DNA from: a virus
Taxonomy: Duplodnaviria; Caudoviricetes
Strand: one strand, 5' to 3'
Virus record (IMG/VR): IMGVR_UViG_3300025372_000014
Location: 1 to 64,000 of that record
Length of the DNA: 64,000 nucleotides
In this document: positions 10,840-17,508 of the stretch, in pieces
How the letters are laid out: each line of letters begins with the position of its first letter
How positions within the stretch are numbered: position 1 is the first letter of the stretch
Program-made: the position numbers and the translations under genes
The notes under the pieces: generated by a model
The model's database searches: none
What the model saw: only the letters and a program-made list of their open reading frames with translations
What the model was told of the DNA's origin: nothing

Positions 10840-11337
10840 ATGAAGATTTGCGCTAACTGTCAAAGGAGTTTTTCATCTTGTTGTAAAATAGATGGAGTAA
10901 AAAAGAATTTGGGTGCAAGAAAGTTTTGTTTAGAATGCTCACCTTGGGGGCAGCACAATACACGAAGCATAGGTAAAAGAAAAAACTGCGTAATCTGTTC
11001 AAAAAAATTAGAAGGCAATCAAACTATTTATTGTTCTAGATCATGTACCATGAAAAAAGCCGGTAGATGGTATAAACAACAAAAAGATCGTGCTATACAG
11101 AGAAAGAAAGATCTCGTTAATCAGTTGGGTGGAAAATGTAGCAAATGTGATTACAATAAAAATTTGGCGGCATTAGATTTTCATCATTTAGACCCATCTA
11201 AAAAGGAGACGCCAATGAATCTAAGCTTTTTATTAAAGATGAATTGGGAAAAATGTCTCAAGGAAGTATCTAAATGTATTTTGCTTTGTGCTAATTGTCA
11301 TCGAGAACATCATAATCCGCAATATGAAAATTGGTAG
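10840..11337 (+). CDS. HNH endonuclease with N-terminal zinc fingers
   Basis: Several CxxC; LGGKCSKC..ALDFHH..KCILLCANCHREHH. Confidence 0.9.
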   Translation: MKICANCQRSFSSCCKIDGVKKNLGARKFCLECSPWGQHNTRSIGKRKNCVICSKKLEGNQTIYCSRSCTMKKAGRWYKQQKDRAIQRKKDLVNQLGGKCSKCDYNKNLAALDFHHLDPSKKETPMNLSFLLKMNWEKCLKEVSKCILLCANCHREHHNPQYENW

Positions 11338-11424
11338 TCCTAGAAGGATTCGAACCTTCACCACGCAGGCGTCTCCCCGCTTACACTGTATAAGAGTGCC
11401 GTTCTGCCGTTAAACTATAGGACT
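11332..11424 (-). tRNA. tRNA-Ile (UAU) with ~23-nt variable arm
   Basis: AGTCCTA/TAGGACT-ACCA; anticodon arm GCACT-CTTATAC-AGTGT; GAAGG-TTCGAAT-CCTTC. Confidence 0.82.
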
Positions 11425-16199: not shown

Positions 16200-16232
16200 C
16201 CAAAAAGAGCCCCCCAGTAAAGGAGGGCCCTT
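16200..16232 (-). terminator. probable intrinsic terminator
   Basis: GC-rich hairpin followed by a U-tract on the minus strand, after the peptide ORF. Confidence 0.55.
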
Positions 16233-16254
16233 ATCCCAGCCTCAAAGGAGGCCC

Positions 16255-16398
16255 CTAGTACCGATGCTTGTGAGTAGAAGCTCCAACTGAATGGTGTGAG
16301 CGACCGCTAGAAGAACTATGCTTCCACCCTGCGGCTTGCGCTCCAGAAACGCTCACGAAAAAGATTGCGGTAATGACGGCTAGGATTGTTTTATTCAT
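16255..16398 (-). CDS. secreted His/Ser/Gly-rich peptide (WKHS type), absent from the ORF track
   Basis: MNKTILAVITAIFFVSVSGAQA|AGWKHSSSSGRSHHSVGASTHKHRY; paralog at 27636-27791. Confidence 0.75.
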   Translation of the reverse strand: MNKTILAVITAIFFVSVSGAQAAGWKHSSSSGRSHHSVGASTHKHRY

Positions 16399-16564
16399 TG
16401 GTTGTGTATAGGTTGTATTTGTAGTTTTCTATTTTTCCATTGTTAAACATACGATAGTGCCAGTTACCATGGGTAACATCCATCATGTGTCCGAACAACA
16501 GAGAGTTCTTTGGATTATATTCATATCCAAATAGATTAAGGAGGAATGTGATGGGGTCTTTCAT
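16391..16564 (-). CDS. 57-aa hypothetical protein, absent from the ORF track
   Basis: MKDPITFLLNLFGY...YTTNE; stop overlaps the start of the peptide ORF. Confidence 0.6.
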   Translation of the reverse strand: MKDPITFLLNLFGYEYNPKNSLLFGHMMDVTHGNWHYRMFNNGKIENYKYNLYTTNE

Positions 16565-16589
16565 ATTTATAGTTTGTGGGTTTTTGTTT

Positions 16590-16849
16590 GGGACTGCAAG
16601 AAAATTGTCCCTGCCACTCCGTCGAGTGCTACCCCCAGATGAATCTCTTCACGCTGGGGTTGGTGACTGCACGATACGATTGCAGAACACACAGGGGGTT
16701 TTGCTCTCTGCTTTTAGCCCAGTTAATTATGCTGGACGCCGACTTGAGACGGTTAACTTCAAACGATCATTTGTCGCCTGCAAATTAGTAGCATTACAAA
16801 TTATTAAAGAGCTTCCTAGGTTGTGTCTTTAGAACTGCTAGGCCAGTCC
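16590..16849 (-). ncRNA. putative structured RNA or long structured leader, family unknown
   Basis: TTGACA-17-TACTAT promoter immediately upstream; 5' GGACUG pairs with 3' CAGUCC; at least five internal hairpins. Confidence 0.6.
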
Positions 16850-16868
16850 TTGTATTGTTATAGTAAAT

Positions 16869-17123
16869 CTATTTGCCCTCTGTGTCAACAGGTGTTTCAA
16901 AAAAACTAGAGTCCAATCCAAAATAGGAAAATAGCTCCCATAACTTCTCCTGTGCTATCTCCAAGCCTTTAACCGCATCAAAATCTTCAGTAGTTTTTAT
17001 TTCATCTTCCAAATAGTTTTGCATATTAATACAGACGGCGCGCCACTTCTGTCCATTTAAACAATCGGTCATTGGGACTTCCTCTTTGGGTAGAGAATAT
17101 TTAATATTAACTTCCATAGCCAT
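16869..17123 (-). CDS. conserved small phage protein
   Basis: Resembles 808-1032 (xLPxEE...NG.KW). Confidence 0.65.
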   Translation of the reverse strand: MAMEVNIKYSLPKEEVPMTDCLNGQKWRAVCINMQNYLEDEIKTTEDFDAVKGLEIAQEKLWELFSYFGLDSSFFETPVDTEGK

Positions 17124-17508
17124 AATAGGGATTTACGAATGCCAAATCCAATAAATAGGTTGGAGATTTACTAGCCAAATTCCCCTTAATAGCTGTATTA
17201 GCTAGCCCGATTTCCCCTAAATAGGGATTTACGCCCGATATCCCCCTAAATAGCTTTTTGGGAATACCCCTGTCCCCTTATATCAGAAACTAATATCATT
17301 TCTGTAGTACTAACTGGATGGATTGTTTGTATTTCCACTATATATTAGTATATCACTATTTGGACAGCTTGTCAAGCCATGTATCTATCTGGTAATCAAC
17401 GACTTACGAGACCGGGCCCCGCCCGGTGGGCGTTGTCTTACAAGTGATCAGTTAGGTAAGCGCATATAATTAAACCTACGGTAATTAGAGGGACTAGGTA
17501 TCGCATTT

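Follow-up and report, generated by a model that had tools for sequence, protein, structure and literature searches.

The stretch of DNA considered here, called the window below, comprises 64,000 nucleotides (nt), positions 1 to 64,000, of the 91-kb IMG/VR viral record IMGVR_UViG_3300025372_000014 (Duplodnaviria; Caudoviricetes), and its minus strand carries, downstream of a promoter that begins at 16888, a structured RNA made of two conserved parts. We read it, with a probability of roughly 0.75, as a stable-RNA unit of an uncultured, rIIA-carrying, tRNA-rich phage, in which a type-P1 twister ribozyme would cleave the transcript and thereby free the RNA that follows it, a four-way-junction domain. 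The sequence-only reading of this locus had proposed a novel non-coding RNA, ribozyme or cis-regulator. A structured RNA, very probably a ribozyme, is upheld; the class to which it appears to belong is a known one, and a cis-regulatory role has lost ground.

The unit would work as follows. A host-type promoter would start the transcript near 16853, and this would comprise, in order, a leader hairpin of about 50 nt, possibly pseudoknotted, the twister (16800-16700) and the junction domain (16696-16609), ending in ACAAUUUU. The twister would fold into helices P1 to P5 with the pseudoknots T1 and T2 and, judging from its class membership, would cut its own backbone between U16796 and A16795, releasing the leader with a 2′,3′-cyclic phosphate and leaving the ribozyme body and junction domain with a 5′-hydroxyl end. 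The ribozyme would in this way set a defined 5′ end for the downstream RNA without a host enzyme, whatever stands upstream. In relatives, the segment upstream of the twister is a promoter leader, an mRNA, a tRNA or another RNA module; since it varies while the downstream part is conserved, a fixed 5′ end in any context would be the simplest purpose of the ribozyme. In relatives embedded among tRNAs, host tRNA-processing enzymes would make the remaining ends, and in the window the cleaved RNA would continue into open reading frames (ORFs) of 57 and 47 amino acids (aa).

The evidence comes largely from 39 distinct relatives, designated by numbers with the prefix L, on viral and metagenome contigs. 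They were gathered through loci neighbouring rIIA, three motif scans of viral contigs and one motif scan of metagenome contigs, whose names, in so far as we recognise them, point to freshwater lakes. Members score 63-85 bits with the family covariance model R1, and each phage record searched holds one copy of the RNA. A blastn search with 1 kb around the locus found no match among 50,697 phage records; a strict motif gave no hits in 185,579 prokaryote species (one genome each), and the 15 hits of a looser motif in cellular genomes all scored below 20 bits with the family model, a level ascribed to chance.

The predicted twister core

Searched alone, the window core gives a full-model match to the type-P1 twister family RF03160 (29.7 bits, E 4.2e-5), and relatives with short optional hairpins give full-length matches of 23-45 bits (best 45.4 bits, E 6.7e-8), with UAA, P2, P3, P4 and its loop L4, P5 and GAGNG all in consensus register. 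The match surfaced only in relatives with shorter P3 and P5 or with the core alone as query; a permissive Rfam scan of 16200-17200 returned noise only. The family shares with RF03160 (clan CL00120) the order and register of P1, the U-A site, P2, an optional P3, P4, a 10-nt L4, an optional P5 and GAGNG. Within it, P3 and P5 can be long, and a conserved junction domain is joined on downstream. In all members two invariant runs, GUAAUGCUAC and GCAGAGAG, are flanked on their outer sides by the P1 strands and enclose an optional variable hairpin, the invariant hairpin NCG-UCUCAAGU-CGN and a second optional hairpin. We conclude that 16800-16700 is very probably a ribozyme, assigned to a divergent subgroup of type-P1 twisters, with cleavage predicted at U16796|A16795.

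The loops that differ from the consensus do so in pairs. With its flanking G and C, the family L4 reads GUCUCAAGUC where canonical twisters have GUCCCAAGCC, the L1 strand reads GAGAG rather than GAGGG, and the L2 dinucleotide is AC, pairing with GU of L4, rather than GC with GC, so that T1 and T2 each hold a U-A pair where canonical twisters have C-G (pairing scheme after PMC5408937). These compensatory double changes imply that both pseudoknots are kept. T1 consists of three pairs, CUC of L4 with GAG, and is paired in 35 of 35 sequences, its central pair being U-A in 30, U.G in three, A-U in one and C-G in one; T2, L4 GU with AC, is paired in all sequences with letters there, its variable pair being A-U (32) or G-C (2). 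A further scan that left the variant loop letters free yielded bridging sequences: L105, a canonical twister at 70.5 bits, above the Rfam cut-off, which shares the UAAUGC...GCAGAG frame and has C-G at the centre of T1 and G-C in T2; and L102, where L4 CAC faces GAGUG, with A-U at the centre of T1 and G-C as the variable pair of T2. Within 2.7 kb of the viral contig L105 (2499-5234) lie two matches to the type-P1 twister, at 70.5 and 32.1 bits, as well as one to the twister-sister ribozyme at 39.2 bits, above its cut-off of 34. A minimal twister-like core of higher GC content was also seen in L036 (7876-7950) and, with identical sequence, in six further contigs, scoring 30.5 bits against the family model; P2 is followed there by the canonical GCC, but L4 is that of the variant, so that T2 would hold a G.U pair, and the core stands directly before a Shine-Dalgarno-like GGAGG and ATG.

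Covariation across the family is strong. In a MAFFT alignment of 32 cores, 80% of cells are paired against 58% in shuffles, with a covariation score of 0.48 against 0.15 and at most 0.16 in slid-partner controls; in a model-based alignment of 35 sequences that includes the pseudoknots, 85% are paired against 69%, with scores of 0.354 against 0.119 and at most 0.104. P1, through which both flanks exit, shows double-sided changes in all nine columns. The P3 foot shows them in all 4 bp (94% of cells paired) while P3 ranges from absent to 42 nt; P4 covaries in three of its four pairs, and L4 equals the consensus at eight of ten positions. The P5 position is occupied in relatives by different hairpins or by none. 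P2 (UGC/GCA) is able to pair and invariant in 35 of 35, hence without covariation; its fourth pair is unpaired in 20 of 35, a mismatch also found in the bona fide twister of L105 (the consensus P2 has four pairs).

Twisters are defined, among other features, by a U-A site next to P1 in which the A on the 3′ side of the scissile bond is conserved, and in the Oryza sativa twister the active-site guanine is G45 and the proposed general acid A7 (PMC5408937). U|AA is found at the expected place in 36 of 36 parsed cores, none of which deviates at this A or at the first G of GAGNG; by our own indexing of the rice sequence, these two residues would correspond to A7 and G45. In the window, AGCA and GAGAG align to gGcg-GAGGG of RF03160.

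Junction domain, leader and promoter

The closing helix Pa of the downstream domain runs straight into hairpin Pb, after which come Pc and Pd, the last abutting Pa. Each relative of the window type, folded alone, forms the same junction from differing sequences, and RNAalifold, run separately on the long and short forms, recovered this structure with five and six compensated pairs, respectively, spread over Pb, Pc and Pd. When the junction domain was sought by an independent motif scan, each of the seven real hits also had the twister. Neither permissive Rfam scans of the window and members nor ARAGORN and the Rfam tRNA model, which do call the true tRNAs of the window, gave a family match or tRNA call for 16609-16696. 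Group I intron R/S elements, T4 species 1/2 RNAs, Y-RNA-like RNAs and RNase P RNA, the last suggested by a CAGAGAGCAAACC-like run in common, were considered and dropped, no model giving a hit.

The single-stranded tail ACAAUUUU, conserved in types A and D, may be a processing site. Other family members carry different 3′ parts. For type-D 3′ domains RNAalifold found no covariation and a different inner fold, a failure that we attribute to poor alignment of a single divergent sequence; parsed by hand, type D likely shares the junction architecture. In short-form 3′ domains (L016, L020, L025, L080) the Pb loop carries a 6-nt palindrome through which two copies of the RNA could form loop-loop dimers, and the last hairpin of type-B and type-D members likewise has a palindromic loop; the palindromes are UUGCAA and UGAUCA. 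Between P1 and the junction domain, L069, L065, L032, L025, L051 and L080 hold one to three optional small modules, such as CCUCUGUCUAUGGGGGAAACAUAG and GUCGGAGCAGGGAACCCAAAUCCGAC, none of which occurs in the window.

The internal stems listed by the sequence-only reading (CCUAG/CUAGG, CCAG/CUGG, CUGCA/UGCAG, ACCCCAG../..CUGGGGGU and CACUC/GAGUG) are all present, several of them as parts of the helices in Table 1; that reading had missed those that define the core, namely P1, P2, P3, P4 and the two pseudoknots. Its outermost feature, a closing stem in which GGACUG (16849-16844) would pair with CAGUCC some 260 nt away, fares differently: both runs are present as letters, but the distal one is absent from L024, L032 and L053, and L080 offers no compensation, so that the pairing is unlikely to represent a conserved helix. 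The 5′ GACUG has a local partner in relatives, CAGUY 6 nt downstream, and one position of this leader stem covaries (G.U in the window, G-C in L032, C-G in L016, L024 and L080). The CCUAGG that follows could form an H-type pseudoknot with the loop of the leader hairpin or, as in the minimum free energy (MFE) fold, a nested CCUAG/CUAGG hairpin; both partners are invariant in all relatives, so covariation favours neither pairing. The same leader is found at the head of the tRNA-Met-carrying units of L016, L025 and L050.

The promoter stands as first described. TTGACA-17-TACTAT is of the sigma70 type, with 10 of 12 matches, and every syntenic relative keeps the hexamers and the spacing while the spacer sequence varies, TTGAC being present in all and the -10 reading TACTAT, TATAGT or TATTAT. 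From the promoter to the 57-aa ORF there are about 290 nt, which fold modestly more stably than shuffles do (MFE -81.3 kcal/mol, z = -2.48). The minus strand holds no substantial ORF there, in agreement with the sequence-only reading; a 41-aa frame with a GTG start (16567-16692) is the only one, and it is not conserved in relatives. The 57-aa ORF, the second ORF with its signal-peptide-like start and the terminator-like site were likewise found downstream as had been noted.

Table 1. Coordinates of the features of the RNA unit and its surroundings in the window
Feature	Position	Strand	Remark
-35 hexamer TTGACA	16883-16888	minus	inside the 3′ end of the upstream 84-aa ORF
-10 hexamer TACTAT	16860-16865	minus	17-nt spacer; predicted transcript start near 16853
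Leader hairpin GGACUG-GCCUAG-CAGUUC	16832-16849	minus	local stem; one covarying position
CCUAGG	16815-16820	minus	could pair with the leader-hairpin loop CCUAG
Twister P1, 5′ strand UUUG	16797-16800	minus	pairs with CAAA 16703-16700
Predicted cleavage dinucleotide U16796/A16795	16795-16796	minus	aligned to UAA of the RF03160 consensus
P2 5′ strand UGCU (16793-16790) and T2 partner AC (16789-16788)	16788-16793	minus	
Twister P3	16754-16787	minus	optional hairpin, 34 nt
Twister P4 (ACCG/CGGC) with loop L4 UCUCAAGU	16738-16753	minus	
Twister P5, GUCCAG...CUGGGC	16717-16737	minus	optional hairpin; CCAG/CUGG of the sequence-only reading
P2 3′ strand AGCA (16712-16709) and L1 3′ strand GAGAG (16708-16704)	16704-16712	minus	
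Candidate catalytic G	16708	minus	
T1 partner GAG	16706-16704	minus	
Twister P1, 3′ strand CAAA	16700-16703	minus	
Four-way-junction domain	16609-16696	minus	same junction folds independently in each relative
Closing helix Pa, CCCUGU/GCAGGG	16696-16691 with 16614-16609	minus	
Hairpin Pb	16690-16663	minus	CUGCA/UGCAG of the sequence-only reading
Hairpin Pc	16660-16631	minus	ACCCCAG/CUGGGGGU of the sequence-only reading
Hairpin Pd	16628-16615	minus	5-bp stem, GACG loop; CACUC/GAGUG of the sequence-only reading
Single-stranded tail ACAAUUUU	16601-16608	minus	retained behind the junction domain in types A and D
CAGUCC, formerly proposed distal partner of GGACUG	16591-16596	minus	only in L052, L065 and L069, the closest relatives
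57-aa ORF	16391-16564	minus	predicted to be co-transcribed with the RNA in the window genome
47-aa ORF	16398-16255	minus	signal-peptide-like start
Terminator-like hairpin	16205-16232	minus	end of unit, after the 47-aa ORF

Relatives and genomic setting

The window holds nine tRNA genes, called by ARAGORN and the Rfam tRNA model, and a rIIA homolog (phrog_612) just downstream of the RNA locus; its RIIA is at most 31.5% identical, over the aligned part, to those of the nearest cultured phages. In the loci fetched through RIIA the element lies elsewhere and on the opposite strand relative to rIIA, and in two of them it fills the entire gap from tRNA-Met to tRNA-Trp. Promoter and leader hairpin head all units of the window type, with or without an inserted tRNA-Met: between leader and twister stands a tRNA-Met in L016, L025 and L050 and another RNA module in L051, and in five distinct lineages (among them L016, L025, L051 and L049) the junction domain is followed within a few nt by the start of a tRNA-Trp. 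In L016, L025 and L050 the family member is flanked by tRNAs and has no ORF attached to it. In L032 and L024 the RNA is set off from the following ORF by a GC-rich hairpin and a new promoter-like site, the homolog of the 57-aa ORF in L032 having a promoter-like site of its own; this hairpin scored as terminator-like on the opposite strand only and is not called a proven terminator for that reason. The order is reversed in L004, where the RNA follows the homolog of the 57-aa ORF. In the window, L052, L065, L069 and L080 neither a hairpin nor a new promoter stands between the RNA and the next ORF. As relatives place the RNA among tRNAs, after the ORF homolog, or apart from it by a hairpin and promoter, we take it to be an independent stable-RNA gene, judged by its placement, and not a leader evolved for the 57-aa ORF. 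The window is a reduced version, in which the tRNAs and spacer are missing and the RNA runs on into two small ORFs.

At gathering scores, Rfam models found only tRNA, transfer-messenger RNA (tmRNA) and a distant abiF motif in the window and 11 relatives. The tmRNAs on family-carrying phage contigs are full-length (L017:8054-8488 and L019:5230-5662; 98.9 and 106.6 bits), and the abiF RNA motif lies at L017:1516-1552. Between the RNA and the next promoter in L024 (5860-6060, minus strand), and in the stretch after the element in L053, there is a tRNA-like end, with a T-arm such as GGTGAGTTCAAATCTCAC, an acceptor 3′ strand and CCA, whose 5′ parts are split off by a long GC-rich insertion; neither ARAGORN nor Rfam calls it. 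A tRNA-like sequence with a long internal insertion in L056 (90-240), likewise without an ARAGORN call, ends about 14 nt before the predicted twister cleavage site, and there the twister would act as a cutter of the tRNA 3′ trailer. In relatives, conserved 5′ RNA modules of two kinds, 120-350 nt long (L016:2855-2983, minus strand; L018:426-550; L025:739-1090), sit between tRNA and twister; they have no Rfam match and are absent from the window. Elsewhere in the window, three to four copies of a CTATTTAGGGGRA-like motif lie directly upstream of the 84-aa ORF (17120-17260, minus strand), each followed by a short variable run ending TAAATC, and at 11332-11424 there is a tRNA-Ile of 93-94 nt with anticodon UAU and a long extra arm, which recurs in L024, L062 and L065.

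Alternative explanations, known systems and meaning

Several points weigh against an active twister in such a unit. No family member attains the RF03160 gathering score of 67.2 bits (window 29.7, relatives 23-45); four positions of the strongly conserved loops, two in L4 and their two partners, are off consensus; P1 of the window comprises only 4 bp and P2 only three invariant pairs; and an upstream GCUCU, which pairs with AGAGC of the L1 strand in the MFE fold of the window, is a potential competitor of the active fold. Within the family, moreover, there is no variation in P2 and in most of L4, T1 and T2, partly because the search motifs required those letters, and support for them comes from a few bridging sequences (L102, L105, L036 and three GAGGG members). 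The gathering score itself is a curation threshold, not a structural feature, and a canonical-looking twister of L105 that lacks P3 scores only 32 bits; with all family scores below this cut-off, standard annotation overlooks the family. The sequence-only reading had held that a strong Rfam hit would mark the RNA as known, and the outcome lies in between, a full-model match to RF03160 at scores that all fall short of gathering. The low scores, deviating loops and short helices would also suit a twister fold that has lost cleavage and now serves a stable phage RNA only as rigid scaffolding or as a module to which proteins bind. We consider this unlikely: the differences are exactly compensatory in both pseudoknots, and invariance of the U-A site, its flanking A and the candidate catalytic G, single-stranded positions all, is the pattern expected of an active ribozyme. 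That the likeness to twisters is coincidental, and the whole of some 260 nt one new family with ligand binding or another catalysis, might be argued from the missing hits at gathering thresholds and the 3′ half without Rfam match, but is very improbable in view of the full-model matches in several independent members (E down to 6.7e-8), helices in register, pseudoknots paired by compensation, and the gradation through L105, L102 and L036 into canonical twisters. We give still less credence to a protein-coding origin of the conservation, whether through the 115-aa ORF on the plus strand (16485-16832), the alternative that the sequence-only reading had named, or through a small minus-strand ORF. 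The 115-aa frame is open, and a stop-free antisense stretch is kept in the near-identical L052, L065 and L069, yet searches of Pfam and PHROG gave no match for the ORF, which overlaps the opposite-strand 57-aa gene and is not conserved, frames and lengths being lost in more distant relatives; substitutions in stems are compensatory, and hairpin swaps and deletions involve lengths not divisible by three.

What the RNA would do after cleavage allows more latitude. It could act mainly in cis, the ribozyme lying in the 5′ untranslated region that precedes the 57-aa and 47-aa ORFs; cleavage would drop the triphosphate leader and leave a compact, highly structured end with a 5′-hydroxyl, which would stabilise or insulate the message, much as twister and hammerhead ribozymes have been proposed to process polycistronic mRNAs and alter their stability (PMC6765202). 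The uninterrupted passage from RNA to ORF in the window, L052, L065, L069 and L080, with the first terminator-like site only after the 47-aa ORF, speaks for this; the members between tRNAs without an ORF (L016, L025, L050), the hairpin and fresh promoter-like site in L032 and L024, the reversed order in L004 and a junction domain conserved whatever comes after speak against it, and as an account of the family we hold it doubtful, although for the window genome it need not exclude the stable-RNA unit proposed above. A somewhat bolder version of that proposal, which we put forward tentatively, is that the twister is a maturation device only and that the real product is the cloverleaf-shaped junction domain, always joined to the ribozyme and as a rule situated shortly ahead of tRNA-Trp; this would be a new class of phage stable RNA, set free with a 5′-hydroxyl end made by the ribozyme and acting in trans. 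If so, the junction RNA might be a tRNA-shaped decoy or partner for host tRNA-processing or tRNA-targeting factors or, alternatively, might pair with itself through the palindromic loops of relatives.

The class and part of the setting are already known. Reviews note bacterial twisters near phage genes (PMC6765202), and the theta ribozymes offer a precedent for ribozymes within tRNA transcripts of phages. They resemble the ribozyme of hepatitis delta virus, occur in tRNA transcripts of tailed phages and are proposed to replace host nucleases in RNA end-processing (PMC10879173). Shared with them are a small self-cleaving class (predicted in our case), the tailed phages and the tRNA-transcript setting; theirs are delta-like, sit directly at the tRNA 3′ trailer and come from gut phages (PMC10879173), whereas ours is a twister that usually heads another structured RNA, often at least 100 nt from a tRNA, in lake phages, and that of the window has no tRNA beside it. 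GOLLD and ROOL RNAs are also phage-encoded, modular and near tRNA islands, sometimes with tRNAs inside the unit, and GOLLD is named partly after lake samples (PMC5737381; bioRxiv 10.1101/2024.12.08.627333). This context is common to both, but sequence and structure are not: the GOLLD and ROOL covariance models hit neither the window nor members of up to 594 nt, whether at gathering score or with E relaxed to 10, and the present unit is far smaller (about 250 nt here, whereas relatives reach about 600 nt) and includes a predicted self-cleaving ribozyme. With tRNA itself the 3′ domain shares a four-way junction, a place in tRNA operons and the abutment of Pa on the last 3′ hairpin, as acceptor and T stems stack in tRNA; it differs in lacking T-loop and D-loop motifs and a CCA end, in the 4-nt GACG loop of its last arm and in a closing helix of 6 bp.

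Three things were not found in Rfam or the literature searched: a twister subgroup whose two pseudoknots both carry U-A, the constant association of this subgroup with an uncatalogued four-way-junction RNA, and the promoter-leader-(tRNA)-twister-junction-(tRNA-Trp) units of lake phages. A sizeable twister subgroup, both of whose pseudoknots appear re-paired as U-A, escapes the curated Rfam threshold, and with it travels the uncatalogued junction RNA. The natural role of twisters has been an open question since their discovery, and this family presents them repeatedly in one simple natural setting, the RNA-only operons of lake phages. There the ribozyme is always found at the 5′ edge of one conserved structured RNA, and often between tRNAs. 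The family suggests a testable hypothesis, namely that such ribozymes may make the ends of stable RNAs independently of host nucleases.

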